Positions 11,600-35,613 of a stretch of DNA of 64,000 nucleotides are shown here, one piece after another. The notes below the pieces were generated by a model, which was not told where the DNA came from, ran no database searches, and saw only the letters and a list, made by a program, of their open reading frames with translations. This stretch comes from Schmidtea polychroa (lineage: Eukaryota): the NCBI GenBank assembly GCA_044892525.1, contig CM097888.1, positions 68,386,001 through 68,450,000 on the forward strand, read 5' to 3'. The number at the start of each line of letters is the position of its first letter. The first letter of the stretch is position 1. Made by a program: the position numbers and the translations under genes.

Positions 11600-11741
11600 T
11601 CAACTCTGATTGGTCCGCACAAATAAGAATTTGATATATATACAACTACCAAAAACATTAAATTTACTGTTAACCCCGAGCATTTCATAGGTAAGAAAGA
11701 ATGTTTACTGTTTTGACTGTTAACCCCGAGCATTTCATAGG
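11600..11741 (+). promoter_or_regulatory. Candidate LTR promoter region with 26-bp direct repeat
   Basis: Reverse CCAAT (gattgg) near 11610, TATA-like gatatatatac near 11633, repeat actgttaaccccgagcatttcatagg at 11666-11691 and 11716-11741, donor-like ag|gtaaga at 11691. Function is inferred. Confidence 0.4.
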
Positions 11742-13789: not shown

Positions 13790-14578
13790 ATGTTCTCCAT
13801 TTCATTAGTATTATTTATAGCAAGCATGCTACCAACCACTAAATCAGCATTACGGCCGTGCTTCTCGTGCGCGGATAAAAATACGGTGATAAAGGACCTA
13901 CAAACTCAGATTGGACGTTACAAGAGGAAGATAGACGAGCTGGAAGGGACATGGTTTAGTCCCGCTCGGATGAAAGAGATCCAAAAGAAGCTCGATCGTA
14001 GCGAGCATTGCCGGGACGCGCTAATATCTGAGAGCCGTGCCCAAAGAAGTCTAATCAGAGAACAATCCGAGGCACTGCATAAGGTTTACGTGCAGGCGGC
14101 TACAACCCGAAAAATCGTGCAGATTCCCATCCGAGAGGCCGATGACATCTTTCCGCCTCATCACAACCTTTCCTCGAATCCATCTCCACCGTTCAAGAGA
14201 CCGTGCCGAGACTGCGTCGAAACCGAATGGTCCCCCAAGCGTCCAGATGTTGTCATCACGGGTACCAGTAAGCCCCCCACTGCTAGTCCATCTGTATCAG
14301 TCACCCTTCTGCAAGTGGCATCTTCAAGCAAACCCAAGCGCAAACAACTCTCTCGTGCAGAGCGCAAGAAGAGACAGCGCGAGCGCGCTACTGCAAAGCC
14401 AAACATCCCATCAATAGAGGACTCAACCAACGGTGGCAACTCTCACGTGTCCATCGACCTAACAACGGGACCCTCAGCGCGAATCATATCAGCCGCTGGC
14501 GTAAGGTGGGAAGAGAACGCTTCCGAGTTTTTCAACCTCGACGAATTATTCGCCGACACTGAATGGGAGAAACAATAA
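13790..14578 (+). CDS. LTR-encoded 262-aa protein of unknown function (coiled coil, two CxxC, basic NLS-like tract, acidic-aromatic tail)
   Basis: Long ORF in an otherwise AT-rich LTR, identical in both LTRs. Alternative start ATG 13826 follows tttatag; AATAAA overlaps the stop and recurs at 14702. Confidence 0.65.
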   Translation: MFSISLVLFIASMLPTTKSALRPCFSCADKNTVIKDLQTQIGRYKRKIDELEGTWFSPARMKEIQKKLDRSEHCRDALISESRAQRSLIREQSEALHKVYVQAATTRKIVQIPIREADDIFPPHHNLSSNPSPPFKRPCRDCVETEWSPKRPDVVITGTSKPPTASPSVSVTLLQVASSSKPKRKQLSRAERKKRQRERATAKPNIPSIEDSTNGGNSHVSIDLTTGPSARIISAAGVRWEENASEFFNLDELFADTEWEKQ

Positions 14579-15119
14579 AACCCCAGTGGCGGTCAGGATG
14601 AGGAACAAGGATCCGATCTATGTTGATTATGATGTTTTCTCTTCTTTCGACAAACATTAGTAAAATGTACAGCTGAATCCTTGTGTCATAACGTTGAAAT
14701 TAATAAATCTTGTTGTCTTACACGTTTTCGTTCATGAATAATTAGACTTTAATTAAGTGGGTTGAGTAGAGAACCCGCAAGATCTAGTGAGAATTTCCCA
14801 ATTTGCATTCAGCGAATCCTGATAGGTGGTTGTGTAAGGAAATGGACGTAAGCCCTTCTATCGGCAGTCGTGAATGGGAAGTCGAGGCCTCAGCAAGGAG
14901 TAGTTTTAAGGCAGAAGCTCACCTGCTTGCTGGCGTCTCGCCTGCATAGTGCAGTACCAACGTGAAGTGATTCACGGGCACTATGTTGGAAGAAAGTTAT
15001 GTGGGGTTTCACTCCAGGTTGACAAATCGGTGGCACCTTTTATTCGAGATGGACAATCAACCCTTAGACCCGCCAACATGGTAGAATGGTCAGCCGAGGT
15101 GTAACCCCAACATGATTTT

Positions 15120-15137
15120 TGGGGGCTCAGCCGGGAT
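15120..15137 (+). promoter_or_regulatory. Primer-binding site, tRNA-Pro-like
   Basis: TGGGGGCTCAGCCGGGAT matches the known tRNA-Pro PBS TGGGGGCTCGTCCGGGAT at 16/18; it starts 7 nt after the LTR end. Confidence 0.75.
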
Positions 15138-15454
15138 CTACAGTCGATCGAAACTTCTATTAACGAATGCGAAATTCACCGGGATTTTCATACAAAATTA
15201 AAGGGATTTATCACATCGATTTTCTATTTTCAACCGACCATTGCTTGACGAATGCAAAGTGACTATTGATTATTAAATTATATTAGGAACTAAGTAGAGA
15301 AAATCAAAATGTAGATAATAGAAAAATTAAGGATATATATAAATAAATGAGATAAAGTAGTCAAATTAAATAATTAACAATGGTTAAAGAAACCAATTAA
15401 CGAATTAACTATTAATTTACTACATATTATTAAAACATTACTTTTCCAACAGCT

Positions 15455-15940
15455 ATGACAGAATTCGCGAACCAAATGCAACAACTGCTCAAGTTTATCG
15501 ATATAGAAAACGACTCCCTAACAACACTGACGCATAAAAGAGAAAAAATCAACGCGATATTACTGCAAGCAATCGGACAAACACCAGTCGTACCTAATCA
15601 TATGATATTAGCCACAGGCCTAAGTCGCCCAGATGGAAAAATAAACCCCGAAACCGTATATCAGTGGTATCAAGAGAGATTGAACCACCCAACATTAAAT
15701 CTAGATTATCAGCGTCTAAAAGACTCACTAAATACAATACCAGATGCAATCGAACAAAAAATACAGGAAAAAGTTAACCAATTACGAACTTGTATAGCCT
15801 GCAAACTCCGTCCTATTCGCGTATTACTCTTGCCGTGTGGACACCTCAGTCACTGTGAAGAGTGTGTAAAAGACCTAAAAAGATGCACGATGTGCAAATA
15901 TGAAATAAAAGAGACCCATATGGTCTATTACGGCGAATGA
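15455..15940 (+). CDS. IAP-type C-terminal RING-finger protein (putative E3 ligase), no BIR domain seen
   Basis: CIAC-x9-LPCGH-x3-CEEC-x6-CTMC followed by IKETHMVYY at the C-terminus, the IAP/XIAP-like RING-HC pattern. Acceptor-like ttttccaacag ends 2 nt before the ATG. Confidence 0.85.
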   Translation: MTEFANQMQQLLKFIDIENDSLTTLTHKREKINAILLQAIGQTPVVPNHMILATGLSRPDGKINPETVYQWYQERLNHPTLNLDYQRLKDSLNTIPDAIEQKIQEKVNQLRTCIACKLRPIRVLLLPCGHLSHCEECVKDLKRCTMCKYEIKETHMVYYGE

Positions 15941-16517
15941 AACGGCCGGCGATGTAACAGCAAGTATACGAGGTTTGAACAAGAATGCATGAAATTGTTG
16001 AAGTAACACGTACTGTTAATGATTCAATCTTTATGTTTATGATAAATAAATTCGTCTTTAAAAAGTTTTGATGATTAGGACTAATAAAATTTGCATGCCG
16101 AATGAATATTTGCGTGTTTGTTTTGTTTTATTCCTTTTTTTTTTGGAATCAAATGAAGAGAGGGTTGAATAACGTGGAATTAGTCCCAATATAGACTGCA
16201 GGGGTACAAACCGAGCCACCTTCGGGCGGTACGTCTTATTGCAAGAACCCGTTGGGAGGGGATAACTGATCAACCCAAGTAAGAAGCGTAGGGCGGGGTA
16301 CCATCGCATATGATGAGAAGTTTTTGCGACATGACTGATCACCATGCCAAGGTAGAAATGGATCATCGCGATCGTCGTGCGTTTTGAGCAAGGGGGGAAA
16401 GGGGAAACACTCCCAAGCGGTAAAGATTAAGTCGACAAATTAAAAGTAGACAGAGAAAATGGTAAACTAGAGTAAAAGAAGAAAAGAGAAATAGAAGCAT
16501 GCAGAGCGAGGAATATT

Positions 16518-17071
16518 GAAGATTGAGCTGTTGAATAGTGCCAGCCAGTCGTAAGATCGAGTTGTTGAATAGTCCAACCGATCAGAAGGAAGAAGATTGA
16601 GCTGTTGAATAGTGCCAGCCAGTCGTAAGGTCGAGTTGTGAAAAGTCCAACCGATCAGGAAGGAGGAAGATTGAGCTGTTGAATAGTGCCAGCCAGTCGT
16701 AAGGTCGAGTTGTGAAAAGTCCAACCGATCAGGAAGGAGGAAGATTGAGCTGTTGAATAATGCCAGCCAGTCGTAAGGTCGAGTTGTGAAAAATCCAACC
16801 GATCAGAAAGAAGAAGATTGAGCTGTTGAATAGTGCCAGCCAGTCGTAAGGTCGAGTTGTGAAAAGTCCAACCGATCAGGAAGGAGGAAGATTGAGCTGT
16901 TGAATAGTGCCAGCCAGTCGTAAGGTCGAGTTGTTGAATAGTCCAACCGATCAGAAGGAAGAAGATTGAGCTGTTGAATAGTGCTAGCCAGTCGTAAGAT
17001 CGAGTTGTTGAATAGTCTAACCGATCAGAAGGAAGAAGATTGAGCTGTTGAATAGTGCCAGCCAGTCGTAA
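16518..17071 (+). repeat. Tandem array of ~7.5 x 74-bp units in the retroelement leader
   Basis: Units begin gaagattgagctgttgaatagt at 16518, 16592, 16666, 16740, 16813, 16887, 16961 and 17035 (partial). Each unit contains two related sub-repeats sharing G(C/T)TGTTGAATAGT. Confidence 0.95.
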
Positions 17072-18380
17072 AGGCCTAGAAAAGCGAGAGATAGCAGTTA
17101 AGCTACAATGAGATAATATTTAAATTACTAGTGATATGGAATATTAAAGCTAGCTAGAACAAATTGAATGTAATTTTGAAAATTCGAGTTTAGAGAGGAA
17201 ATAAACGAGCTCGTGGAAAAGAAAATAAGATTATAATGAAAAAGGAAAGGGAAGAAGGAAACGAATTAAAGAGATAATAGAAAATAAAGAATAGATGAAA
17301 TGATGATAATGAGTAAAGAGGAAAGTAACTAACTAATTAAAGGGATCCCAGTGAAGTAGAGAAACTCTACGGAATTTTTTTTTTTGGGTAAACCGGGAAA
17401 ATGTATTTTTACCGGTTCCAGAGTAGAACCGAGTGGGATAATAGTAAACACGAAAAGTAAAACAGCGACAACAGCGCAAAGGAATAAGAAAACGAAGGGG
17501 GGTAATAAGCAGAGACTGACAACGACCTATTTTTACTATAATTGATAACGAATAGATAATTATTACGACTTTATAGATAATTGTTACTACCCCATATAGA
17601 TAATTTAAAATCGACGGAAAATACGGGCTGATGGGATATTATAACCCGCAGAAAGGATTTCACAAAAAGATAGGGGAAGCACAAACAGAAACCTAAAAGG
17701 CGTCTGTTTTTGAATGTTGTAGAAAGAATGATGAAGTCGTGTAAGCAAATGCAACACGAGATCATTTTTTCATTTTAGATATCAAGCCAATCCAGCCAAC
17801 CAAGACAATCCAGAACCTGCACAAAAGGAATTCGAAGAAATCGACAATCAACCAAGGATAAATCCATTCAGAACCCGCACCGAGAGACACAGCAACCGGA
17901 AGACTCCAGAACGGAAGAAGTATTAGCAGCCATCTGCCAAGGATTAGTAAATCTCCTCAGGATCTCAGTAGCAGATTCATACAGAATATTTATCGAAGGA
18001 AACACAATCAGAACCGAACGCGTCCAATTCAATAGCCGCTAATTACCAAGAAGCGTAAGAAAGGAATCACGGATAAACCCAATCTTAGATCTTCTAGTAA
18101 GCCAGGAGACGTATTATTTTCAGGAGACGAATTACAACAACTCAAAAGAGGACGATCCATTAAACATCAAAGAGGAATATCACAAGGATCCAGAAGAACC
18201 AATCAAGTACCCATATTTGACCAAGAAAATCTCGGATATACCCCTAGTCGATCTCGAAGTAGAGAAAGTCTGTCCGATATCACTAATAGTTTAGCAACGT
18301 CAACCGAGGAGTTATCAGCCCAAAGTTTAGTCACATCGTTAGACAATTTAAAAGAAACAGACGAACCTAGAACACCAATC

Positions 18381-19286
18381 ATGACGAATGTCGTAAAAAC
18401 CGACGAGTATAAAGAGAAGTTCAGAGGAGAACCGTTCAACGGAAACGCAAACAAGCTAGCATCGTTCATAACTAATTTTGAAGTTTATATCACTGTGTGT
18501 GGATGGACACCCGAAGCAATTAGTAAAAGGATGCCGTTGTTTTTGTGCGATAGTGCATTAGAGGTATATTTAGAAGCTAAAGAGAGAGACACGAAATTAG
18601 AAAAGTGGGAAGATATTAAAACATTCCTGAAGAAAACCTTCGGAGCCAGTAAGCCAATCAACCAGGCGTTGGGCGAACTAGCAAATAGGAAACAAAGAGC
18701 AAACGAATCGATAACATTATATGCCAGTGAATTGCGGAGATTAGCGAAGAAAGCAATGAATGGAAAATTACCCGAAGAAAATCTGATCGGTTATTTCATA
18801 GAGGGATTACGCCGAGAAGAAGTAAGAGCCTCAGTAGGTTGTCAAATGTGCAAAACATTAGAGGAAGCCATAGATTGGGCTACAAGATGCGAGCTCCACC
18901 TTCCAGCTCAAATGAATATTATGCAAGAGGAGGGAAGGATAGCGACAGCAATAGCGAAAGCGGATAACGGAGATAACAACAATCAAGAACCGAAAATGAA
19001 TCAATTTATACCAGGAGCGCACCAAATTTTCAAACCACCACAAGGACGATCAAACGGGAATAATGGTAATCGTAACAACCCGAATAATGAGAACAATTTC
19101 AATAATCGGCGAAATATGAACGATAACAAGCAGTGCCGAACATGCGGTAAACCAGGACACTGGGACAGAGATTGTTATAGAAATTCAAATTGTAATCGTT
19201 GCGGACGGCGTGGACATACCGAAAATGTATGCCAATTGCGAGGCTGTTTTAACTGTGGTCAGCCAGGTCACATCTCCAGAGATTGC
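18381..19286 (+). other. Gag capsid-like domain and three CCHC zinc knuckles
   Basis: Retrotransposon-gag pattern (WEDIKTFLKKTF, RKQRANESITLYASELRRLA, FIEGL); knuckles CRTCGKPGHWDRDC, CNRCGRRGHTENVC and CFNCGQPGHISRDC at 19134-19286. Confidence 0.92.
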
Positions 19287-22200
19287 CGAGAAAGGGGCCA
19301 ACAACAACGACCACCACAGCGAAATAATAATTATATAGCGAATCCGCAACGACAAAGTAACCCTAACGAAGGAAAACAAATGAACGTTATGCAGGAAATT
19401 TCGCAGATGAAACAGATGATGCAACAAATGATGAGACCAAGACAAGAATCAGCACCACAACAAACCCAGAATATACGTATGATGAGGAGTACCGAAAATC
19501 TCAACAATTATGAAGTGCATCAACATGTACAAGAATGGCAAAGGCTACAGGCCGAGGAAGAGAGGATAAAACAAGAACGCAACCAACAACGACAAGAACA
19601 ACCATTGCGAATAAATATGATGAAGTTAGTAAAAGACATGAAGAGCCAGTATTGCTACAATTACGGGAAAAGCCCAAGGGTAGTACCCATGACTGAACCA
19701 GAAAAGGTAAAAGAAATAACAACGGAAATGAAAACAGAGAATTCAACCACGATTTTAAAAGGAAACCAGAGAATTCAGAAAATATTCTGGAAAAAGATAA
19801 AAGATAAAATCGAAAAAGAACATAATAAAGCGAAAGCCGAGACAGAAGATGAAAATAACAAGAGCAAGGAACAAACCAGTCAACTAAACCACCAAATGCT
19901 ACAGGAATTAGAATCAGAAGAAACAACGATATTCGAAAGAAAGAAACTAAAGAGAGTACCAAGGATGAGAAACTTGCAAATCAATATGATGAAAAGGACA
20001 AAAGATGTAGCATCGTCAGACGAGGAAGAAGACTATGTAAGTAGTTTGGGTGGAGAAATACTACAGCTGAATGAAATAAGCGAACCTCCAAAAGGGGAAA
20101 TCAAAGAGGAAGAAGGCGAAAGCGAGATAACCAGCGAAAGTGAAGACGAGGATATCGAAATAAAGTTGAGAAAAGGGAAGGAGGAAGCGATAAAACAAGT
20201 AGCGGAAATACTCCCAGTAGTAGTGAGGAACCAAGAGTTCATTGACGTAATACCATTCAGGCGATTCGTGCAAAAAGTGATGAAATTGGAAAGAAACGAG
20301 AAAGATTTAATACCAAACGAGGAAAAATCAATTATAAAAAATTATATGGAAAAAATGAAGCAGGCCGATACCACGCGGTATGTAATAAAAATCGGAACGA
20401 GTAGAGGACTTGAAAGAATGTGGATAAAAAATACAGTCACCGACGAACTTTTCGATTGGATACGAGAGCATTTGGGAAGTTCGAGAAAGAAAGAATATCT
20501 GTATCAATACCAAGGAGAACAGATCAAACCAGATATGCACTTAGTAGATGCACTAATATGGCCAGGAGAAACGCAAATACTGAAGTTGCATAAAGAAAAA
20601 CAACCAGCCAACCTTTACGATTGGGCTAAAGATGCCAAGGCAGAATATGATTTTAATATCAAATTGAAATTAGAACAAATAAAACAATGTACTCTGAGAC
20701 GAAACCTGGATAAGCTGATCAAACAAATTCAAGAACAAGTAGAAGACAACTGGGATTTACTCATCACCAGACGAGCCCCAGCCATGTACGAACTAATGAG
20801 CCGGTTGCGAGATACAGAAATGCTCCGAATGAGTGATTGGAGAACCATAAATTTGATCCACAAATATGGAAGGTTAAAAGAAACCCAGCCACAGAGGTTG
20901 GAAATAACCATATGGTTACCGAACGAAGAAAAACGACGAATAAAAATGAGCAATCAGAGTACAGTAGATGACTTGGTATCAAAAATAAACCAAGAGATAA
21001 CGGAAAAGGTACGTAGCGAAAGTAGTGATGGTATGGTGGATGATGTAGTCATGATGTACGATAAGATAATATTACGAGCGGAGGACGACACCTCGTTAAG
21101 CGAAATGGGTATGTGGGACAATCACCAGATAATCAGGATAGTACCAATGGATGAATTTCGAACAAGAGATGTAACCTATCAAAAAGAAATACGAGACCGG
21201 ATGAAAACGTTATATCAAAAATCTACGGAAATAATTAAAATCCACCAACAATGGTTAAAAGAAAAAGAACTACAAGGAAAAATCACGAAATTAAGCACCA
21301 GATCCTGCAGACGAACCCCATGGGAAAGAGTGTGGAATGCAGAAAGTAAGGAATGGGAAATCCGGAAAGGAACCTTCGTGGAAACAGACATTGGTGAGAC
21401 AGAAAGTGAATCGGAGGAAGAAGAAGAGGAACCTCCAAAATATGAAGAGGAAGCAAGGGAACAGACATCAGATGACGAAGGCGAGACGGATGTCACATCA
21501 GAAAGCGAAAATGAAGCGAGACATATTCATGCAATGAGGAAAAAGGAACGTGAATATGCTGATATGGACGGCGAGGAAGCGACGGAAGCAAGAGAACGAG
21601 AAGAGAAAGAAAGATATAAACAATTAGGCGATATCTTAGCAATGGGAGCGAAAAATCAAAGACGCCAAGTAGTAGCGTTGGCTAACATCATCTTAAAGAC
21701 ATCAGAGGACATCCACAATCTGAGAGGAATGGCAAAGGCAATAGAGGAATACCGGCAATATAATGAATGGTATCCAGAACAGCTAGAACAAATTATTCGA
21801 AAATGGAGAAATCAGGAATGGGCACAAGACACCCAGGAGAGGTATCACATCCGAATCAAGTATCCAGACAAGAGCATCGAGGAACTAGAGGTGCATCCAA
21901 CAACAAAAATTAGAGAATTAAAAAAGAAATTAGCATATGAAACTCCATTCCATCTGCAACTGTTCGGAAAATCACTAGACGATAATGCAGACGTCGGGAT
22001 AACCCCCATGAGATTGGAAGAGACAAATGTATTAACAATGGCAGAAACGTTGGGAAAACCGTTAAAAAGGAAAAGTAAAATTATTAAACCAACACAAGGC
22101 AGTTTGAGTACTCCAAGTCCGAACAAAGCACCAAGTAAATCTAATGAAACTGAAGAAGTTGAAGAGATAATCCTGGAAGATAGTGACGATGAACCAGGAG

Positions 22201-25200
22201 AAAGATCACCGCTATTAGTGAGATGGCCGACAGGAGCCGAAATGTGGACTAATAACCAGCCATCAACGAGTTATCAACAACCAACGAAACTGAACATCGA
22301 AGAAATCATCGACAATACTACGGAAACCGAAACGGATGAACAATTCCAGAAGCAAAGAGAACCAACGAAAGTAACACCAGAAAGTCAAACCGACAAAATA
22401 ATAGACGAATGGAATGAGTGGCTAAGAAATAACGATAGCTCATTACCCAGAACGGATAACGAAAGAAATCCGAATTACGAAAATACCAGAGAAGCAGGAA
22501 CGATGATGGAAAAACGGGCAAAAGGAAGACCCAAGAAACAAGGAGAAAAGTCTGAGTTCAAAACCAAAGAACAATTAAAGCAAGAACAAGGGCAAGTTCG
22601 ATTAGAAAAATTGGATAAAATAGTATGGGATCTAAAGGAAGCCCAACCAACGATCGAAAGAGGAGAAAAATGGATACGAGAATTGTTAAAAGATATGTTA
22701 ATAATAACAAACCCACAACTTAGACGTTTGTGGCAACGGAAAGTAGCCAGTACGGAAGCTAGACAATTATGGCACACCATTTCGGGGATAATCCCAAAGT
22801 TAATCAAAGAGAAAACGAAAACCACCAAAACGGATTGGGACGAAACAAAGAGAGTGATTGAGCAGCTCACGACAAATGCAAATGATGACGAGCATCACCT
22901 AGTGGTAATCACTTATTTGATGTATAATTTGATGGGACTAGCTGCGAGGAAAATACCAAATAAACAGTTTGCAAATCATGTAGAAATGACCGTTTCAATC
23001 ATAGAGAATACTATTGAACCACACATTATTCGTGCAGGAGGATGGAAAAGACTGATACAAGCGCCACGGAAAAATGAGCAAGAAAGGTCGATGCAAGTTA
23101 GATTGAAAAAACTATTAAATGAACTAGAATGGGAACTACCGATGAAAGATCCCGCAAGCAGAAAAGCATCAATAAATTCGTTAATGATGACTATGATGAT
23201 ATGGATGTTGTGCACAAGTGGAGCAACAGGTTTCACCATCTACGATTGTGATAACATGATAATGAGAGATAAATACTCATTGAGAGACATAGAAGAATGC
23301 AGACAAGCCTCACCCAACAAATTGGACATCGTGAGAACAAAAGTTACTTACCATGTATATCAAGAATCAGATTTCATCAGAACGCAAGCAAGGGAATGCG
23401 TAGTATCAAAAAAGGTACTCGCATATTACTGTGGACAATATTCGTATTCGACTCTTATACTACCCGGTCTGGATAAAGAAATCGTATCAATACAACGAGA
23501 GGATTGTAAAGAGCTATTTAGAACCGGAGCGCTAAAAATGCATAACGGAGTGACAATTCACGGACAAACTGGAATGATTAAAACCGAAAGTGTTTACGTA
23601 TCCGGAAAAGTAAAATCATCAGATGGGTCATGTAACGGAGGTACGTATACGATCCGAGGCGAGGTAATATCGGGAGTTGTAGTGATCGAGTCTTACACGG
23701 TCGAATTAAAAGAATACGAAGCGCAATTTGACGCAAATAATTACCAAATGAAGACCAACCCAACGTGTAGAGCTACAGAAAACGTATGCAGGACAGGAGT
23801 ATCAACTATAATCTATGAAGCTAATACCCAAAAATGCCGACTCCAACTGTTAAAAAGTGCTTTGTTCAATGAAGTAAAAGGAGAAATATATGAGAACGAG
23901 AACGACGAGGATGGAAACGACAGAGTGAGAATGCGAAATGGAAAACCAATGCCACCATCTCCCAGAGAAAAGAGACTTTCAACGCAGAAGACACCAACAG
24001 CATTAATCACAGACGATCCAGATCTAGGTATGAGATTTATCAAAGAGAAAGAAACCACCAAATGTGACAGTATAGTATATAAAACCAATTACGCAGGTAT
24101 CTATATGTCGAGACAAATAATCGATAGAGCAGTGGGAAAGATAGCAACGGAGGACGTAAAACTATACTTATATGCAAATAATAAAATGGATTTTCTATTT
24201 CATCGCGGACAAACGACCTTGCAAAAAGTATATTACGATCTAATACAAAACGATTGTTCATTGAATAAAGAAATATTGAAAACAAAGCTAGCTATTGCGA
24301 TAACGCACCCAGATAACACGATGCCATCACTCCCATTTCCAGATGGACACTTTGGTAGAATGGTAGGAGAAGTGATGTACACATACCAGTGTACCAAGAC
24401 GTATGCACGAATGCCAGAAAAATCCATACTACCCGAAAAGAGATGTGCAAATGAATTAGAAATCCGTTATAAAGGACAAAATCGATTCGTCCAACCAGTC
24501 ACTAGAATTATGAATCCAGTGGGTTTCTACCCAAATCTCTTTAACTGTTCTAATGCATACGGACCTTTATATGAAAGGCCCGATGGGAAATGGATGATGT
24601 TACCGGGAAAAACCATATCCGAGGAGCCCAAGAAATTTGGATTAATAGAACTCGCCACAGAGCTGGATTTCAAACCTATAGACGTGTCAAACGGTGGTAT
24701 GTATTCCCCAGAAGATCTAGAAACAGCACGACTTAACGTACTCTTCCCAGCCAGACGAGAATCCATTTTGTCTAATATGGTAACAATAACTGGGGGCACA
24801 AACTATCAATCAGGCCCGAATTACGAGCTGCTATTATCGCCAGACCATTTTCAACAAGCTACGTCAAACATGATGAAAGCAATGTGGGGAAGATTCTTAG
24901 TTTTTGGAAAAATGATGGCCGGGATATTAGGGATCATACTCATAATTCAGATAGTCAGAGTAATACTAACACAAATGTTAGCTTGTTTCGATATATACAA
25001 GCGGGAAAAGAAAGTTAATTGGAAAATGATAGTAGGCTTCTTACCATTTTTAGCTAAGACCATGGTATTACATGGCCACTCAAAAGACATTCATCGGATA
25101 AAGCGATTGATTAAAATATTAACAAAGATTAAAGGAACCGACGAGGAAGTAGGCAGACGATTCCGGAAAGTAATGTACGATGAAGCAACAAGACGACAAT

Positions 25201-28200
25201 TGAAAAAGAATAAGCCAAAATTCTTGGACCGATTTAGAAGCCAATCATCTAACAGCGATAGTGACGACGATGATAACGGGAACGATAAATGTCTTTATCC
25301 AAACAGAAACCCAAACGAAAAACCAATGGAAACGGCACCATATTGGGAAAAGGAAAAGACAAACACCTGGATCGCCAATGGAAGCTATATACCACCGGAT
25401 ATCGTGGGACCACAAACAGCTTTGACCATGACACAAAATATGTATCCGCAATTACCGAGTCAACCCGGTATGCATTATATGCCAACACGACGTACCAAAA
25501 GTGTAGATCAAGCAGAGGACGTAAGAACAATAGCAGCGATGAGTTTACCTGGAGGTCCAGCAGTAACAGTTATGATTCAAATCAATGGTAAAGAAACCAA
25601 TGCTATGATAGACACCGGAGCTAATGTATCAGCGATAGCGATTAATCAAATCCCCAGTAAACACTGGAAGGATATCGAATCAACAACAATTCACATCATA
25701 GCATGTAGTAAAGAAACAGTGGACGTGGTCGGAAGATGGTGGACTACATTGAGATACCAGGACAACGAAATTGAAACGTATTTGGCAGTAATACCAAAAC
25801 TTAGCGTACCATGCATAATCGGAACGGATTTGATGCCAGAATTGTTAAAAGAAATCGTAATTGACTTAACAACCATGTGTTTAAAAGACAAAACCGGTAG
25901 AATATGCAAAATGAATGCAGTCATCAGATGTCCAGAAAAAATAATAGTACCAGCAAAATCACAGATGATTTGTCAGATAAAAGTGGATACGGGTATGGAA
26001 GGAGAAGTTATCTTTGAACCAAGCAAGTCATTTGAAAAGCGACGAGAATTACCACTCGCAAGAGAAATAATCACAATAAACCAAGAAGGAGTGATACCGC
26101 TCAACATCACGAATTTCGAAGAGGAAGACAAAATCATTTATGAGAACGAAAAATTGGGAAGATTGACCCCAATGATGGACATAGAATTACCGAAAGTGAC
26201 CAACGAGATGATCAAAGATGATGAATTATGGACAATAGATAGTATGTTGTTGACGAATGACGAAAAGAAAAAATTGCACCGATTGTTGGTAGAATATAAA
26301 GATATATTCGCCATCTCAGATTTAGACTTGGGTACATGTGATGTTACCTTACATGCAATACCACTCATAGACGAAACCCCAATTGCATTGAGACCATACA
26401 AGCTAGCAGAAATGCAGAAAGAAATAGCCGAAACAGAAGTACAAAAGATGCTAGACGCAAAAGTAATCGAACCAAGTTGCTCACCCTGGCAATTCCCAGT
26501 GGTCATGGTAAAAAAGAAAGATGGCACCCAACGATTCTGTATCGATTATCGGAAGTTAAACGCAGTGACCAAGAGAGATACCTACCCATTGCCGGACATC
26601 AATGAGATGTTATTGATGTTGCAAGGGGCAGCATATTTTACTTCTTTAGATCTAAAAAGTGGATACTGGCAGATTAAAGTCAAAGATGAGGACAAAGAGA
26701 AAACAGCTTTTACGTTGGGACGAGATCTATATCAATTCAGGAAAATGCCATTTGGACTGACTAACGCACCAGCATCATTTCAACGGTGTATGAACTTTGT
26801 CACCCATGGAATCAAACAATGTATGGTATATATTGATGATTTACTAATCTATTCAGCGACATTTGAACAACATCTAGAAGATATCCGAAACGTATTTATT
26901 AGATTAAGACAGTGGAAACTCAAACTCAAACCATCAAAATGCGATTGGGCAAAGGAAAAAGTCACGTTTTTAGGACACATAGTGTCAGCTAAAGGAAAGG
27001 AGCCAGATCCAAGAAACATTGAGAAAATAAAAACATGTCCAGCACCGAAAACTGTCACCCAAGTTCAGGAATTTCTAGGATTATGCGGATACTATCGCAA
27101 ATTTATCAAAAATTATGCAGGAATTGCAAAACCAATCCAGGAATTAGTAAAGAAGGACATTTCGTTCTTATGGGGGAAGGAACAACAAGAGGCGTTTGAA
27201 ACGCTGAGAGACAAACTAATCGAAGCACCTATCCTCGTACACCCAGATTTTAAGAAGCCATTTCTATTGGCAACGGATGCAAGCGGGTACGCGGCAGGCG
27301 CGATTCTGGGACAATTGGACGATGAGGGAAAAGAGAGAGTAATCGGGTATTACAGTCGAACATTCAAAAAGCACGAAAAGAACTATTCGGTAACAGAACG
27401 AGAAGCATTGGCTATAATACAAGCTATCAAACACTTCCGATATTTACTATGGGGACATGAGATATGCATAACCACAGACCATCAACCATTAGTGTGGTTA
27501 GGGCAACATAAAGAAGCGTCCAGTAGACTGATGAGATGGGCCATGCAATTGCAAGAATACTCCCCATTTATAAAATTTAAAGCGGGAAGAGCAAATGCCA
27601 ACGCCGATTGTATGTCAAGATTTATTTTCCCAGATTTGGTGGATTCAGAAATGCAACGCATATGCTTAATAGTAGCGGAAGATTTGGATTTCTGTCAATT
27701 GCGAAAGGACCAACAAGAGGACGCGGAATTAAAACAAATTATCGATTATATAAAAACCGGACAGACAGATGTATATGCGAAAGACCAAAAATTAAAAGAA
27801 CATATGGATAAACACCGACACCGATATATTATAGAGAAAGATTGGTTGCTGATAATGGATGGGGAAAAACGATTAATGTGTATACCGGAAAACCGACGAA
27901 AAGAGTTACTAACGCAATATCACGATGGGAGATTGGGAGGACATATGTCATCAAAAAAGACGTTAGCAAGAATGAAACAGAAATATTTTTGGCCTACGTT
28001 AACGGAAGATGTAACCGAATGGGTAAAAAATTGTCTAACTTGTGCAACCAGGAAGAATACGGGATCGAAATGGAAAGCACCTTTAACGCCAATGCCAGTA
28101 CCAATAGAACCAATGACAATGATATCCATGGACGTAGTTGGTCCACTACCAGAGTCAGATAAAGGAAACGTTTACATTCTGGTGATCACAGACTTTCTTA

Positions 28201-31200
28201 CGAAATTCCCAGAAGCATTCGCGATGCCAGACCAAAAAGCTAAAACAATCGCAAAAATTTTGGTAGAAGAGATATGTTGCCGATATGGAACACCAAAACA
28301 AATCTTAACCGATCAGGGAACAAATTTTATGAGTGAGATAATGAGCGAAGTAACAAATTACTTCAAAATAGCAAAACTAAGAACATCTCCATACCACCCT
28401 CAAACCAATGGGATGACGGAAAGATTTAATGGAACACTTATACAAATGTTATCAAACTACGTTGACCGTCACCAACGAGATTGGGACGAATATATAAACC
28501 TATGTCTTATGGCGTACAGAATGTCGATTCACGCATCAACGAAAATGAGCCCATTCAAATTAATGTACGGAAGAGAATGTAATATGCCAATGGACCTGGA
28601 ATACCAACCACCGATATCGCAGTATATGGAGATCGATGATTATGTTACGAAATTCAAGGAAAGAATGCAAGAAATTTGGGAAACTGCGGGATTAAATATC
28701 AAGTTCTACCAGGAAAGTTATAAAGATTTACACGATCGAAAGAAAAACGTGAAGCAACATACGTTCCAAACAGGTGATTGGGTAATGATAGAAACCCCGG
28801 AATTAATTCCAGGAACCACAAAAAAGTTACAACGCAACGGAAAAGGACCATATGAGATCTTATTCGTAGGCGAAACTAATGTAAGAGTGAAATTGGTAAA
28901 TAACCCCTTTACCAGACCAATATACGTAAACGTGGCACGATGCAAATCAATTCCAAAAACAGCCACTAGTCAACCAGAAGGCCGTACATTAACCACACGT
29001 TCGCAAACCTACCGAATGAACATGATGCAACAACTCGCAGAACCGATCACTGGACGATTAGGTATCCAACCTTCAGAAGCGGAAAAGATTGTAAAAGAGG
29101 TAAAAATTAAAATACCTGGATGGGCAAAAGATCGATTAGATTTCGAAATATTAGGAGGATTATTGACGATGATCGAGAACTATGCAAATAGAGAAAGGAC
29201 ACACCCATTATTGCGAGTAGTCAAAAGCCAATGGCCAATATTATTTACAATAACAGATCATTACGGAGACACACCATTACACAAACTCATGAAAGTAGGT
29301 AACAACGAGCAAATACTAGAAACAATAGAAGCATTTCACGACTGCAAGCGATCAACAGAACAAACAAACAACCAAGGTTACACACCATTAATGATAGCCG
29401 CAAACAGAGGCAAAACAAAAGACATTATAACCGCATTACTCGATACCGGATCGAAAATAACTACACAAGACCACGAGCGGAAAAACGCTCTACATCATGC
29501 TATCAGAGGGAGAAGTACCGAGGCGTTCACGTCATTGATGGAACTACTATCATATGAGGACAATCGGGAAGTCGGAAACATGTATGATGGATTGCTAACA
29601 GCGATCAAAGAAAAACTGACGACAATTACCGGAATATTAATTACATGGAGAAATCCGATTCGAAACGATTATATGATCAACGTAAACGAAGCGTTCACGA
29701 GAGGAGAGAACACGCTGATGAGAGAAGCTATGAAAGGACATCATTTATTCGAAATCCCGAATCAATTACTAGAACGAGGGATAAAATTCACAAATCACAA
29801 AGACGAACAGTTAACAAAAAAGCGAATCGACACATTCGAAAAATCACTATTCCAATTTACTAACCAAGTACGACATAAATATTGGGAAACAGTAAGTGTG
29901 TCATATATGATGGACACGATGAATAACATCCGCGAGAATTACATGGATATTATCCAAATACTTACAGCAGAGGAACGAATCAATAATCCAAACGGAAAGA
30001 AAACGAAAATAAGGTATGAGAAATCCAGGGAATCAAAGTCAACAACGAACCAAACGGTCACAAACAACGTCATCGAAACCAAATCAATGAGTATAGATCA
30101 AGAGGCAATAATACGCAAAGCAAAAGAAGTGTTCTTTGAGGAAATGCTAGAGCTGCCAGACGAAATAATATTGTCCAAAATAATAAAAGCCGTACACACA
30201 TACGCAAGAGATCAAACCACGGGTTTAGATATCGGGAAAATCAAAACCTTCTTGCCTCGAGCATTTACGATGGTAACGAAGGATTCCCGAACACCCCTAC
30301 AACAAGCAATACTAGCTGCAAAAGAGAATAGAGCAATAACGATCATGAGAATCCTTGGGGAGATGGGCGAGGAAACCAACACGAAAAATGAACAAGGTGA
30401 AACCGCCATGATGTATGCAGCTATAACGAAAATACACCCAAAAACACTCCACATCCTACATCAATCAGGATCGAAACTAGACGAAAGGTCCAATGAAGGA
30501 AATTCCACCTTGGACTGGGCAACCATACAGCCAAACTTAGAAATGATCAGATTTATTTGCAAAAATGCGACAGAAGAAGAAGTTGAAAATATGTGCAAAA
30601 ACACATCTCAGTTTCAATGGAATACGGTACGGAAAAATCTAGAAGCAATGAAATTATTATTAACCTGGAGAGTACCACCAAATAATAAATATGCGATAAA
30701 TGTAAACGAATTCTACGAAAACGGAGAAAATGCGATGGTAAAGAATACCCTAACTAAGGGGGGGACGCCTAAAATTATTTTAATAGTATTAAATAGAGAA
30801 GACCTAAAATTCACGCAAAATCAGAACGAGCAACAACGAATTGGGAAACATCGTCGTATGCAATTGAGAGAGTTAGTTAAAGAATGGAATAGAAAGAGAC
30901 ATGCTGCAACGGGTAGAAAAGAGTTTGAATTCGAAGCAAAATTAGCAAGAAACAGAGTGCTAACAGCATATCGCAGATTATTGAACGATATAAATGTCGA
31001 GGACGACATTTTAAATGACAGCGAGGGAGATAAACACGATGACAATAACGGAAAAGACCGAAAGGAGGATAAAGAGAAAAGAGAACCGGAGGAGGGTAAA
31101 CCAGAAAACAAGGATTCGGATACGAAAAGAGAGGGAAACAGCCCGAGAACCAAGACCAAAGAGGAGGAAAAATCGAATAATGGAAAACAGAGGGTATGCC

Positions 31201-32234
31201 TACCTTTCACTAACAAAGAAATAGAGACAAATATGATATTAATGATAATTATGCTTACCATGATAGAGTTAGTAACAGCTCAGGGAGGGACGAGAACGAT
31301 AAAAGAAACCAAAGAAGCGGAGAATCAAGATAGCAAAGAGGATGAACTAAAACAAGAAAAGAGAAAGCAAGCACAAGAGCAGCAGTGGGATTTAAAGGAA
31401 GAATGGGACTTAAAGGAAAAGTGCATACTAGGAAGATGCATGTCTAGAGCGTATCAGAAATTAGTACTGATAAATGAGGACACAGAACCAATAACAGAAG
31501 TAAGAATACAAGAAGCATACCGAAATCGAGACGGGAAGAGAATAACGAACGTCAAAGGAAAAGAGGTACACCTAGGAAAAGGTGGTGAAGTAGTAATAAC
31601 GCAGATCCAACCTAGAAAAGAGCACAAAGTCTGTATTTCAAGATTAGGACCAGGTGAGAGATGCCATCAATATGTGACGCAGCAGCAGCCGCCGAAAGAA
31701 TACACGGTTTGTATCTGGAGGAATGAATCAAAAAGAGAATGCCGACGATACCCGGGGAAAAGAGGAAAGAAAAGAAAAAACCACGACGAAAAGAACGAAG
31801 GAGGAAAGCACAAGAAAACTGGTGAGGAAGCTCAGGACAACTATGTTTCGGAGGAAGAGATGGAAAAAATACAAAAGATGGCAAAGGAGGGTATGAACGA
31901 GGAAATAGCAAGAATACGGGAAATGATGAAAGGAAATGGCAAAAGAGGAAACGAGAAAAGTACAGAAGCGATATCAACATTAACAAACAAGGAAAAACCA
32001 GAGAGTATAAGCGTGAAGCAGATGATGTGGATCAGTGGGATAATAATAACAGGGGCATTCCTAATCATAACGGGGGGAACAATAAAAATAATTAAAGATA
32101 AACGACATCGCGGAGAACTAGAGATGACTCGAATCAGAAATTTCCAACATCGAGTGAAACGACCAAGTGATATCAAACAAGAACAGTGGGTGGAGGCCTG
32201 GAACGCTCAGCGCCCTCCAAACTCACGTATATAG
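18381..32234 (+). CDS. 4,617-aa single-frame polyprotein: Gag-ZnK3-Ubl3-Bcl2-like-Env-PR-RT-RH-IN-ANK-membrane protein
   Basis: Uninterrupted ORF with all catalytic motifs intact: DTG (25611), YIDD (26829), RNase H TDAS, and integrase zinc-binding plus DVVGP/DQG/ERFN. Confidence 0.97.
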   Translation: MTNVVKTDEYKEKFRGEPFNGNANKLASFITNFEVYITVCGWTPEAISKRMPLFLCDSALEVYLEAKERDTKLEKWEDIKTFLKKTFGASKPINQALGELANRKQRANESITLYASELRRLAKKAMNGKLPEENLIGYFIEGLRREEVRASVGCQMCKTLEEAIDWATRCELHLPAQMNIMQEEGRIATAIAKADNGDNNNQEPKMNQFIPGAHQIFKPPQGRSNGNNGNRNNPNNENNFNNRRNMNDNKQCRTCGKPGHWDRDCYRNSNCNRCGRRGHTENVCQLRGCFNCGQPGHISRDCRERGQQQRPPQRNNNYIANPQRQSNPNEGKQMNVMQEISQMKQMMQQMMRPRQESAPQQTQNIRMMRSTENLNNYEVHQHVQEWQRLQAEEERIKQERNQQRQEQPLRINMMKLVKDMKSQYCYNYGKSPRVVPMTEPEKVKEITTEMKTENSTTILKGNQRIQKIFWKKIKDKIEKEHNKAKAETEDENNKSKEQTSQLNHQMLQELESEETTIFERKKLKRVPRMRNLQINMMKRTKDVASSDEEEDYVSSLGGEILQLNEISEPPKGEIKEEEGESEITSESEDEDIEIKLRKGKEEAIKQVAEILPVVVRNQEFIDVIPFRRFVQKVMKLERNEKDLIPNEEKSIIKNYMEKMKQADTTRYVIKIGTSRGLERMWIKNTVTDELFDWIREHLGSSRKKEYLYQYQGEQIKPDMHLVDALIWPGETQILKLHKEKQPANLYDWAKDAKAEYDFNIKLKLEQIKQCTLRRNLDKLIKQIQEQVEDNWDLLITRRAPAMYELMSRLRDTEMLRMSDWRTINLIHKYGRLKETQPQRLEITIWLPNEEKRRIKMSNQSTVDDLVSKINQEITEKVRSESSDGMVDDVVMMYDKIILRAEDDTSLSEMGMWDNHQIIRIVPMDEFRTRDVTYQKEIRDRMKTLYQKSTEIIKIHQQWLKEKELQGKITKLSTRSCRRTPWERVWNAESKEWEIRKGTFVETDIGETESESEEEEEEPPKYEEEAREQTSDDEGETDVTSESENEARHIHAMRKKEREYADMDGEEATEAREREEKERYKQLGDILAMGAKNQRRQVVALANIILKTSEDIHNLRGMAKAIEEYRQYNEWYPEQLEQIIRKWRNQEWAQDTQERYHIRIKYPDKSIEELEVHPTTKIRELKKKLAYETPFHLQLFGKSLDDNADVGITPMRLEETNVLTMAETLGKPLKRKSKIIKPTQGSLSTPSPNKAPSKSNETEEVEEIILEDSDDEPGERSPLLVRWPTGAEMWTNNQPSTSYQQPTKLNIEEIIDNTTETETDEQFQKQREPTKVTPESQTDKIIDEWNEWLRNNDSSLPRTDNERNPNYENTREAGTMMEKRAKGRPKKQGEKSEFKTKEQLKQEQGQVRLEKLDKIVWDLKEAQPTIERGEKWIRELLKDMLIITNPQLRRLWQRKVASTEARQLWHTISGIIPKLIKEKTKTTKTDWDETKRVIEQLTTNANDDEHHLVVITYLMYNLMGLAARKIPNKQFANHVEMTVSIIENTIEPHIIRAGGWKRLIQAPRKNEQERSMQVRLKKLLNELEWELPMKDPASRKASINSLMMTMMIWMLCTSGATGFTIYDCDNMIMRDKYSLRDIEECRQASPNKLDIVRTKVTYHVYQESDFIRTQARECVVSKKVLAYYCGQYSYSTLILPGLDKEIVSIQREDCKELFRTGALKMHNGVTIHGQTGMIKTESVYVSGKVKSSDGSCNGGTYTIRGEVISGVVVIESYTVELKEYEAQFDANNYQMKTNPTCRATENVCRTGVSTIIYEANTQKCRLQLLKSALFNEVKGEIYENENDEDGNDRVRMRNGKPMPPSPREKRLSTQKTPTALITDDPDLGMRFIKEKETTKCDSIVYKTNYAGIYMSRQIIDRAVGKIATEDVKLYLYANNKMDFLFHRGQTTLQKVYYDLIQNDCSLNKEILKTKLAIAITHPDNTMPSLPFPDGHFGRMVGEVMYTYQCTKTYARMPEKSILPEKRCANELEIRYKGQNRFVQPVTRIMNPVGFYPNLFNCSNAYGPLYERPDGKWMMLPGKTISEEPKKFGLIELATELDFKPIDVSNGGMYSPEDLETARLNVLFPARRESILSNMVTITGGTNYQSGPNYELLLSPDHFQQATSNMMKAMWGRFLVFGKMMAGILGIILIIQIVRVILTQMLACFDIYKREKKVNWKMIVGFLPFLAKTMVLHGHSKDIHRIKRLIKILTKIKGTDEEVGRRFRKVMYDEATRRQLKKNKPKFLDRFRSQSSNSDSDDDDNGNDKCLYPNRNPNEKPMETAPYWEKEKTNTWIANGSYIPPDIVGPQTALTMTQNMYPQLPSQPGMHYMPTRRTKSVDQAEDVRTIAAMSLPGGPAVTVMIQINGKETNAMIDTGANVSAIAINQIPSKHWKDIESTTIHIIACSKETVDVVGRWWTTLRYQDNEIETYLAVIPKLSVPCIIGTDLMPELLKEIVIDLTTMCLKDKTGRICKMNAVIRCPEKIIVPAKSQMICQIKVDTGMEGEVIFEPSKSFEKRRELPLAREIITINQEGVIPLNITNFEEEDKIIYENEKLGRLTPMMDIELPKVTNEMIKDDELWTIDSMLLTNDEKKKLHRLLVEYKDIFAISDLDLGTCDVTLHAIPLIDETPIALRPYKLAEMQKEIAETEVQKMLDAKVIEPSCSPWQFPVVMVKKKDGTQRFCIDYRKLNAVTKRDTYPLPDINEMLLMLQGAAYFTSLDLKSGYWQIKVKDEDKEKTAFTLGRDLYQFRKMPFGLTNAPASFQRCMNFVTHGIKQCMVYIDDLLIYSATFEQHLEDIRNVFIRLRQWKLKLKPSKCDWAKEKVTFLGHIVSAKGKEPDPRNIEKIKTCPAPKTVTQVQEFLGLCGYYRKFIKNYAGIAKPIQELVKKDISFLWGKEQQEAFETLRDKLIEAPILVHPDFKKPFLLATDASGYAAGAILGQLDDEGKERVIGYYSRTFKKHEKNYSVTEREALAIIQAIKHFRYLLWGHEICITTDHQPLVWLGQHKEASSRLMRWAMQLQEYSPFIKFKAGRANANADCMSRFIFPDLVDSEMQRICLIVAEDLDFCQLRKDQQEDAELKQIIDYIKTGQTDVYAKDQKLKEHMDKHRHRYIIEKDWLLIMDGEKRLMCIPENRRKELLTQYHDGRLGGHMSSKKTLARMKQKYFWPTLTEDVTEWVKNCLTCATRKNTGSKWKAPLTPMPVPIEPMTMISMDVVGPLPESDKGNVYILVITDFLTKFPEAFAMPDQKAKTIAKILVEEICCRYGTPKQILTDQGTNFMSEIMSEVTNYFKIAKLRTSPYHPQTNGMTERFNGTLIQMLSNYVDRHQRDWDEYINLCLMAYRMSIHASTKMSPFKLMYGRECNMPMDLEYQPPISQYMEIDDYVTKFKERMQEIWETAGLNIKFYQESYKDLHDRKKNVKQHTFQTGDWVMIETPELIPGTTKKLQRNGKGPYEILFVGETNVRVKLVNNPFTRPIYVNVARCKSIPKTATSQPEGRTLTTRSQTYRMNMMQQLAEPITGRLGIQPSEAEKIVKEVKIKIPGWAKDRLDFEILGGLLTMIENYANRERTHPLLRVVKSQWPILFTITDHYGDTPLHKLMKVGNNEQILETIEAFHDCKRSTEQTNNQGYTPLMIAANRGKTKDIITALLDTGSKITTQDHERKNALHHAIRGRSTEAFTSLMELLSYEDNREVGNMYDGLLTAIKEKLTTITGILITWRNPIRNDYMINVNEAFTRGENTLMREAMKGHHLFEIPNQLLERGIKFTNHKDEQLTKKRIDTFEKSLFQFTNQVRHKYWETVSVSYMMDTMNNIRENYMDIIQILTAEERINNPNGKKTKIRYEKSRESKSTTNQTVTNNVIETKSMSIDQEAIIRKAKEVFFEEMLELPDEIILSKIIKAVHTYARDQTTGLDIGKIKTFLPRAFTMVTKDSRTPLQQAILAAKENRAITIMRILGEMGEETNTKNEQGETAMMYAAITKIHPKTLHILHQSGSKLDERSNEGNSTLDWATIQPNLEMIRFICKNATEEEVENMCKNTSQFQWNTVRKNLEAMKLLLTWRVPPNNKYAINVNEFYENGENAMVKNTLTKGGTPKIILIVLNREDLKFTQNQNEQQRIGKHRRMQLRELVKEWNRKRHAATGRKEFEFEAKLARNRVLTAYRRLLNDINVEDDILNDSEGDKHDDNNGKDRKEDKEKREPEEGKPENKDSDTKREGNSPRTKTKEEEKSNNGKQRVCLPFTNKEIETNMILMIIMLTMIELVTAQGGTRTIKETKEAENQDSKEDELKQEKRKQAQEQQWDLKEEWDLKEKCILGRCMSRAYQKLVLINEDTEPITEVRIQEAYRNRDGKRITNVKGKEVHLGKGGEVVITQIQPRKEHKVCISRLGPGERCHQYVTQQQPPKEYTVCIWRNESKRECRRYPGKRGKKRKNHDEKNEGGKHKKTGEEAQDNYVSEEEMEKIQKMAKEGMNEEIARIREMMKGNGKRGNEKSTEAISTLTNKEKPESISVKQMMWISGIIITGAFLIITGGTIKIIKDKRHRGELEMTRIRNFQHRVKRPSDIKQEQWVEAWNAQRPPNSRI
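23181..25080 (+). other. Envelope glycoprotein (chuvirus/Monjiviricetes-like class III fusogen) embedded in the polyprotein
   Basis: Hydrophobic signal LMMTMMIWMLCTSGATG, then FTIYDC...YSLRDIEEC...YQESD...ECVV...YCGQYS. Cysteine-rich ~560-aa ectodomain, furin-type REKR (23964-23975), TM MMAGILGIILIIQIVRVIL from 24912. Confidence 0.72.
25560..28960 (+). other. Pol: aspartic protease, reverse transcriptase, RNase H, integrase (Ty3/Gypsy)
   Basis: AMIDTGA; SPWQFPVVMVKKKDGTQRFCIDYRKLN; LDLKSGYWQI; MPFGLTNAPASFQR; YIDD; LATDASG; TDHQPL; H-x6-H...CLTC; DVVGP; TDQGTNF; ERFN; GKGPYEI (GPY/F). Confidence 0.97.
29256..30760 (+). other. Two ankyrin-repeat blocks fused downstream of integrase
   Basis: GDTPLHKL, GYTPLMIAA, KNALHHAI; then RTPLQQAI, GETAMMYAA, GNSTLDWA. 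Both blocks end in a related motif (LITWRNP..Y.INVNE...GEN vs LLTWRVP..YAINVNE...GEN). Confidence 0.85.
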
Positions 32235-32394
32235 AAAGGAATATGACTGTATATAATTGTAAAAAGTAAGTATATCTTATGTATATAACAGTACTATATC
32301 TTTATATAAGCGCGGTATCAATATTATACAATAACGGGAATCATAAAATAAAATTAAATTTACATAAGAGTTGAAAAGTGTATATAAATTAGGA

Positions 32395-32754
32395 ATGGAT
32401 CAAGGAAATAACGAAATGAACCACAATACAGTAACTGAAGAATTATGGAAGCAACAATGTGCCGTATTAGCACAATTAGTGTCCAATTTGCAAGAACAAG
32501 GACTGACGATGCACAGAAACCTGATCGAGAGTATGAACAGAGGATTTAGTTATTTGAAGATAATTGAAGACCAGAGGTTAAAAATCGAACAAATGCAAAG
32601 AGAGATAGAGAGGATAACCCAATATAGCCGTCGACAGGAAATTGAAATAGACCGAATGAGGGAGGAAGCAGAACAGACAGAAATAGAAGACTGGTCGGAA
32701 TGGCTAATGAATAGAGAGGAGAGCGGGCACGAAGCCGACTCTTCCGAACCCTAA
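32395..32754 (+). CDS. Small coiled-coil accessory protein (~119 aa)
   Basis: First ATG at 32395 within the listed ORF; heptad-rich E/Q/R sequence with the same codon style as the rest of the element. Confidence 0.6.
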   Translation: MDQGNNEMNHNTVTEELWKQQCAVLAQLVSNLQEQGLTMHRNLIESMNRGFSYLKIIEDQRLKIEQMQREIERITQYSRRQEIEIDRMREEAEQTEIEDWSEWLMNREESGHEADSSEP

Positions 32755-32839
32755 ACCAAACCTAGCTTAAAATGTAAATAATTGTAAATAAAATATCGAA
32801 CCTGTATCGATAAGAACTATTTGTACATATAATTATAGA

Positions 32840-34228: not shown

Positions 34229-34366
34229 CCAATCGAATAATGTTGTATATAATAATCTGTATATATCGGTGTATATAACCAATAAAATATTATATAATAA
34301 TAGTATGAAAACCCTAAATACGAAAACCCAAAAATGATGCGAAAATTTCCCAAGAAACAGTAAATA

Positions 34367-35476: not shown

Positions 35477-35524
35477 GGGTGGATGAAAAGATGAAAAACT
35501 AAAAACCGGGACGTATATCCCAAA

Positions 35525-35525
<1 letters not shown>

Positions 35526-35555
<30 letters not shown>
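35526..35555 (+). repeat. A30 tract inside the element
   Basis: 30 consecutive A, 49 nt after the stop of ORF 34367-35476. Confidence 0.9.
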
Positions 35556-35557
<2 letters not shown>

Positions 35558-35613
35558 AAAGTATTGTAAAAGTATTCAAGGGACTGTAACCCAAACTATT
35601 AAATTTTATATCA

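Follow-up and report, generated by a model that had tools for sequence, protein, structure and literature searches.

We analyzed a 64-kb stretch of Schmidtea polychroa DNA (the window) and found that positions 11271-41143 form one complete LTR element of 29,873 bp. Its LTRs, 3.84 kb in length, are 99.92% identical over 3,850 columns, and a 4-bp target-site duplication, CTAA, is present at 11267-11270 and 41144-41147. The main open frame spans 18036-32234 and encodes, from its first Met at 18381, a polyprotein (ORF1) of 4,617 aa comprising, in order, Gag, CCHC knuckles, a ubiquitin-like domain, a Bcl-2-like domain, a signal peptide, Env, protease, RT, RNase H, integrase and ankyrin repeats. With a size of about 30 kb, long LTRs, one giant ORF1 and the published domain order, the element is, by layout, a Burro-type enveloped giant LTR retrotransposon. 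In a search of its own genome, all 150 copies scored (of 929 candidates) were 94-100% identical across a 217-aa region, and thus the family is young and high-copy. The same genome encodes four further lineages (B, C, D and E) with the same Bcl-2-then-Env order. The principal features of the window element are:

11271-15112, + strand: 5' LTR with TG...CA ends (LTR pair alignment, inspection of ends and flanks)
18381-32234, + strand: ORF1 polyprotein, 4,617 aa (ORF translation, Pfam)
18534-18815, + strand: Retrotrans_gag domain, aa 52-145 (PF03732, E 3e-9)
21522-21536, + strand: last candidate site for the element protease before the Bcl-2-like domain, aa 1048-1052 (repeated motif, post hoc)
21828-22076, + strand: putative ubiquitin-like domain, bounds approximate (PF00240, E 0.004, below cut-off; Burro is reported with one at the same position)
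22512-22538, + strand: basic GRP(K/R) motif, presumably AT-hook-like (common to lineage B and the relatives P0001, P0002, P0004 and P0008)
22662-23060, + strand: Bcl-2-like domain, aa 1428-1560 (Pfam, profiles, fold model, selection)
22851-22919, + strand: BH1-equivalent stretch (alignment with sister elements, and of these to Bcl-xL)
22998-23060, + strand: BH2-equivalent stretch (element alignment, translation)
23061-23168, + strand: 36-aa linker with basic residues at its end (94% identity in the sister subfamily)
23169-23231, + strand: internal Env signal peptide, aa 1597-1617, with signal peptidase predicted to cut after 23231 (same location as the signal peptides with which stand-alone glycoproteins begin; (-3,-1) rule)
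23232-24968, + strand: Env ectodomain, a Monjiviricetes-type fusion glycoprotein (PF24664, E 8e-70), and transmembrane helix (24918-24968, aa 2180-2196; hydropathy)
25569-28400, + strand: protease, RT, RNase H and integrase (PF00077, PF00078, PF17917, PF17921, PF00665)
37302-41143, + strand: 3' LTR (LTR pair alignment, inspection of ends and flanks)

Following the 5' LTR is a primer-binding-site-like stretch (15120-15137), which we take to resemble a tRNA-Pro primer site. The leader also contains a tandem array with a 74-nt period (16492-17082) and a GT..AG stretch (17387-17498), possibly a leader intron, that is skipped by one contig of run X1 (presumed to be RNA). A second signal-peptide-like segment with a transmembrane helix is found at the end of ORF1 (31230-32072, aa 4284-4564) and also in lineage C; this end likely encodes a second membrane protein. 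Several accessory ORFs accompany ORF1. One (32792-34228, +) combines RING, zinc fingers, a coiled coil and MATH, and is thus TRAF-like, and that at 36407-37075 encodes a small protein with a signal peptide and a transmembrane segment; the accessory ORFs at 36407-37075, 34364-36366 and 13784-14578 (all +) further comprise two proteins with coiled coils and, lying within the LTR, an ORF of 264 aa. Another ORF (15434-15940, +) has a C-terminal C3HC4_3 RING (E 8e-11), with no BIR found, and may have a connection with the IAP region that has been reported in Burro1. More generally, no Pfam match to a BIR domain was detected in 11 scanned proteins and no BIR-like pattern in six frames. Outside the element, the window encodes a host ARMT1-like exon (8381-9160, +; E 1e-48).

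The original prediction recognized a Bcl-2-like segment at 22671-23060, corresponding on the + strand to aa 1431-1560 of the frame starting at Met 18381. The translation matches the residues it quoted, and the homology it proposed holds by element profile, hhalign and decoy comparisons over 22848-23057 (helices 4-8) only, N-terminal helices excluded. The proposed loss of the NWGR signature is also confirmed: the position reads DDEH (22884-22895), and NWGR is absent from all 16 rows that cover it in the 17-row element alignment. A basic residue at the position of the NWGR Arg is kept in most sister lineages and lost in that of the window. The BH2 pattern L..WI...GGW had been reported as matched; GGW is indeed retained (23037-23045), but the window has His in place of the first Trp, which every other row of the element alignment (10 of 11) retains, and the Trp pair is kept in most sister lineages. 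Similarly, the domain precedes the Env signal peptide in the same frame, as described, but not directly, as 36 residues separate it from the hydrophobic stretch. The sequence and length of this linker differ from lineage to lineage, and the subfamilies of lineage B share 48% identity across it.

Taken singly, the window domain gives a weak signal. Its match to PF00452 (aa 1484-1555; E 0.014) reaches 16.4 bits, short of the curated cut-off of 31.4; lineage B reaches 29.1 bits, and one of its copies (L066, a 619-aa frame) exceeds the cut-off with 32.2 bits. A PDB sequence search with the window segment alone had no match at E 10, and word-index protein searches yielded 0 of 779 candidates for polyprotein region 1400-1760 and 0 of 7,452 for a multiple alignment (A3). 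Profiles were more sensitive, although their outside rows were partly chosen by a BH2-like motif, so that the results are inflated and lean favourable: the best 60 of 132 PDB rows (E<=10) found with the 17-row element-only profile were all Bcl-xL/Bcl-2 (best E 1.3e-5), and, after removal of the four lineage B rows (since PF00452 had found that lineage), all nine non-Burro Bcl-2-like proteins of the same genome scored above 1,264 decoys. With the BH2 columns removed, two of the nine (L042 and L053, the top scorers with the element profile) still ranked first and second, above all decoys, whereas helices 1-3 alone placed none of the nine above the decoys and had no sequence similarity to Bcl-2. 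When 11 element rows were aligned by hhalign to these nine sequences, the match had a probability of 95.9% (E 5.5e-9, 68 columns). On these comparisons, we consider the window domain to be a real, much-diverged Bcl-2-family homologue over helices 4-8.

The AlphaFold/Foldseek check that the original prediction had proposed neither refuted nor cleanly confirmed a Bcl-2 bundle. The AlphaFold2 model, built from 17 sequences, has a mean pLDDT of 50.6 and is confident only for residues 72-147 (pLDDT 68-80 across residues 71-140, under 50 for residues 1-60); a single-sequence prediction had a pLDDT of 47.4. With this model, all 41 Foldseek rows shown are of the Bcl-2 family, with a best E of 0.086 and none at E 0.001. 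VIA-align superposed residues 50-151 on Bcl-xL (Z 8.2, 96-97 residues, rmsd 2.8-2.9), a Z tied with unrelated chains, two of which rank above Bcl-xL (ranks 3-4); such values can reflect common arrangements, and helical bundles reach them by chance. Bcl-2 family members make up 11 of the 50 rows and have the longest alignments among them. In a viral fold library, no match was found at E<=0.001, an adintovirus Bcl2 being sixth (E 0.99). The predicted fold is therefore compatible with Bcl-2, without significance.

A search with the domain and the start of Env against 1.84 billion representatives returned 135 matches. Among 31 inspected relatives, there are seven (P0003, P0006, P0008, P0014, P0023, P0030 and P0032) in which the signal peptide is preceded by a BH2-like motif; in a Pfam scan of 24 proteins, five of the seven matched Bcl-2 below the cut-off (E 8e-5 to 0.06). 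The Bcl-2-before-Env arrangement thus occurs in five lineages of this genome and in seven outside proteins. Nine relatives with Env in the polyprotein lack the Bcl-2-like domain, which indicates that it is dispensable. Another relative (P0129) carries immunoglobulin domains followed by a Monjiviricetes-type glycoprotein in a single 1,000-aa protein.

Relative to an intact sister subfamily, the domain is 93.4% identical, with 67 synonymous and 14 non-synonymous differences over 136 codons, a comparison in which synonymous sites are saturated. Its dN (0.044) is close to those of Gag (0.035) and protease (0.040), with Env at 0.064. Strong selection extends over the whole frame (omega is 0.034 even in the upstream linker), and we conclude from these substitution patterns that the domain is, like the frame as a whole, under purifying selection. 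Its evolution is more rapid than that of Env in lineages B and D/E, where the omega values are 0.13 and 0.29-0.38, respectively, for the domain and 0.05-0.06 for Env.

In a tree of the domain, a single branch separates the 13 element domains from nine other sequences (support 91/92, 89% of bootstrap trees), although branches are long. A quick Env tree of 25 rows, which omits P0014, P0023, P0025 and P0039, intersperses elements with and without the domain and forces at least three changes. The simplest reading, as we infer it, is probably one early capture from a host gene, with later losses.

Other Bcl-2-like genes are present in this genome. Some are dispersed multi-copy genes (L046-L060 and L091-L093), among them one group that a short intron seems to interrupt. 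Their neighbors are ORFs resembling A32 ATPase, TBP and PolB, and these genes are probably Polinton/adintovirus cargo; Bcl2 homologues are among the genes reported for adintoviruses (PMC8502044). In addition, a Bcl-2 gene that has NWGR is present in seven nearly identical copies (L031-L037), all in a stretch of about 0.9 Mb on contig C4.

We then considered how the domain relates to the segment that follows it. The signal peptide has a short hydrophobic core (about 12-14 residues) and did not reach the threshold of the polyprotein hydropathy scan, which besides the Env helix picked out two further hydrophobic segments close to the C terminus. A (-3,-1) pattern at the same spacing occurs in 11 of 14 Bcl-2-bearing rows, 7 of 7 rows without Bcl-2 (two of nine having been dropped because the pattern was unmatched) and 13 of 15 stand-alone glycoproteins, against a background of 10%. 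The best 17-residue hydrophobicity values for these groups are 0.10, 0.06 and 0.17, respectively (lower is more hydrophobic), and the distance from GGW to the hydrophobic helix is 25-56 aa in all 14 Bcl-2-bearing rows. Because Bcl-2-less relatives and stand-alone glycoproteins keep the same cleavage pattern, aa 1597-1617 is Env's ancestral, ordinary signal peptide, not more hydrophobic where Bcl-2 precedes it. The possibility that it is a leftover Bcl-2 anchor was rejected, the same segment being present in both of those groups.

Two routes other than the polyprotein could produce Env. An internal start at a Met before the signal peptide was rejected as a general route, as the sister subfamily has Leu at this position and only 7 of 14 rows have a Met no more than 20 residues away. 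As for splicing, a crude scan of 15120-23300 gave nine acceptor-like candidates, none after 19262, and no joint within 19025-33000 was listed from the contigs of four runs (presumed to be RNA). Given the lack of an acceptor-like site in 19262-23300 and of a conserved upstream Met, Env is likely made from the polyprotein.

This has consequences for topology. With Gag and Pol cytosolic and Env necessarily luminal, the signal peptide should be oriented with its N terminus in the cytosol and its C terminus in the lumen. By established rules of membrane topology, signal peptidase would then leave the signal helix on the upstream piece. The original proposal that the signal sequence could act as the C-terminal membrane anchor of the domain therefore fits the polyprotein topology, but the segment involved is an ordinary Env signal peptide, common to Bcl-2-less relatives and without added hydrophobicity. 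We give lasting anchorage of the domain by this helix, with which the topology agrees, an even chance.

Cleavage by the element's own protease may also be involved. A repeated motif, recognized post hoc as a candidate site, occurs at aa 177, 333, 410, 533, 1048, 2510 and 3545, with an eighth match inside the protease, and is retained in the sister subfamily; it is absent between aa 1052 and 1597, and lineages B and C have none.

Taken together, these observations suggest a possible sequence of events. A host Bcl-2 gene was likely captured once by a Burro-type element. In the polyprotein, Gag and Bcl-2 would be cytosolic, Env luminal, and Pol cytosolic again after the Env helix. The signal-peptidase cut would leave the signal helix on the Bcl-2-side piece, likely tethering the domain at the cytosolic face of the ER. 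If the repeated motif marks protease sites, the element protease might free a piece of about aa 1051-1617 comprising the ubiquitin-like domain, the basic motif, Bcl-2 and the anchor, a step to which we attach little weight. The tethered domain would most likely dampen host cell death.

An anti-apoptotic action could about equally be present or absent. The complete loss of NWGR in the window lineage and the use of an ER signal peptide in place of a mitochondrial anchor argue against such a role. A predicted complex of the domain with a BH3-like exon (L096) of the host's Bak/Bax-like gene, made without use of the alignment, scored 0.01 and favors neither reading. As a whole, the proposal of a diverged Bcl-2 domain, acquired in one capture, tethered to the ER via the Env signal peptide and likely dampening cell death seems to us plausible at slightly less than an even chance. 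In its most specific form, the captured Bcl-2 would have lost its own anchor and borrowed the Env signal peptide, so that every Env made would leave one ER-tethered, NWGR-less Bcl-2 protecting the producing cell; this version we regard as doubtful.

The fold may instead have been kept without a role in apoptosis, as an interaction module, being either a block to innate signaling or an inner lining of the particle membrane within a long Env leader. There is precedent: some poxvirus Bcl-2-fold proteins block innate signaling, and foamy viruses have a long Env leader at the inner face of the particle membrane. The loss of NWGR and of the first BH2 Trp fits this reading, and the element also encodes the TRAF-like RING/coiled-coil/MATH ORF and ubiquitin-like modules, with a basic AT-hook-like motif just upstream of the domain that survives in domain-less relatives. 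On the other hand, in most sister lineages the residue in place of the NWGR Arg is still basic and both BH2 Trp residues remain, and the Env-in-polyprotein design is the same in domain-less relatives, so that a role in budding would not need the domain. We consider a purely non-apoptotic module unlikely, if a serious candidate.

It is less probable, in our view, that the domain acts off the membrane, released by the element protease or by host signal-peptide peptidase, with the signal peptide as a passing tether. The core is short, resembling that of any cleaved signal peptide, and the linker is variable in sequence and length across lineages, but the stretch from aa 1052 to 1597 contains no copy of the candidate protease motif, and within lineage A linker conservation is 94%. 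Finally, a chance likeness to Bcl-2, suggested by weak single-sequence scores and by the ease with which helical bundles reach such Z-scores, or a functionless spacer, is largely refuted and very improbable, given the element profile, hhalign and decoy results, the lineage B copy above the Pfam cut-off (32.2 bits) and a dN in the domain as low as that of Gag.

Compared with cellular Bcl-2 proteins (Bcl-xL and the L042-like gene of this genome), the window domain aligns through helix 4, BH1, helix 5, helix 6 and BH2 but is without NWGR, a detectable BH3 or BH4, an intron and a tail anchor of its own. Viral Bcl-2 proteins (F1L, DPV022, SPPV14 and KsBcl-2, PMC11209288; BHRF1 and A179L, both among the VIA-align rows) similarly have a Bcl-2-type core, in several members with degenerate BH motifs, and often a C-terminal hydrophobic helix, and DPV022 and F1L are described as lacking recognizable BH motifs while still binding Bak/Bax (PMC11209288). 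However, stand-alone genes encode these proteins, which carry an anchor of their own, in most cases a mitochondrial one, and have shown BH3 binding (PMC11209288), whereas the window domain sits in a retroelement polyprotein and its helix would be a borrowed ER signal peptide.

Placement of Env between Gag and Pol is shared with the GAG-ENV-POL HSV/gB-type errantiviruses of Platyhelminthes, Bryozoa and Nematoda, in which the ectodomain is flanked by a signal peptide or transmembrane helix (PMC13524379); neither "Bcl" nor "Burro" occurs in the main text of that paper. The closest likeness is to Burro/GYPSM1 of dugesiid planarians, elements of about 30 kb with one ORF1 of 4,600-5,100 aa (Jurka 2007 and Grohme 2018, cited in PMC6431247) that encodes CCHC Gag, ubiquitin-like and BCL2-like domains, a mononegavirus-like Env in frame, protease, RT, RNase H, integrase and ankyrin repeats (PMC6431247). 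The likeness is one of described layout; the window element differs in that MATH is encoded by an accessory ORF further downstream and that no BIR was found; a BIR domain is reported for Burro1. The same account mentions a BCL2-like motif for Burro-2, -3 and -4 and places Env between BCL2 and protease (PMC6431247), so the BCL2-then-Env layout in Burro is already published and the novelty implied by the original prediction does not hold. The section of that account on this layout tests neither fold nor selection and suggests no anchor, and our literature search found no proposal of a signal-peptide anchor or test of the domain, although Grohme 2018, the 2026 Burro1 paper and supplements may cover it. 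To the published layout we add support for true homology, evidence of selection, a probable single early capture with later losses, and a topological tie to Env.

Burro1 is transcribed once PIWI silencing is lost (PMC8532177) and is reported to encode a working captured IAP that protects stem cells (cited in PMC13465017). If the proposal outlined above is true, Burro-type elements would encode a functional Bcl-2 as a second anti-death arm beside this IAP. Were the domain to block cell death, planarian retroelements present in many copies would modulate apoptosis of the host at both the Bcl-2 and the caspase steps, with a bearing on stem-cell survival and regeneration.
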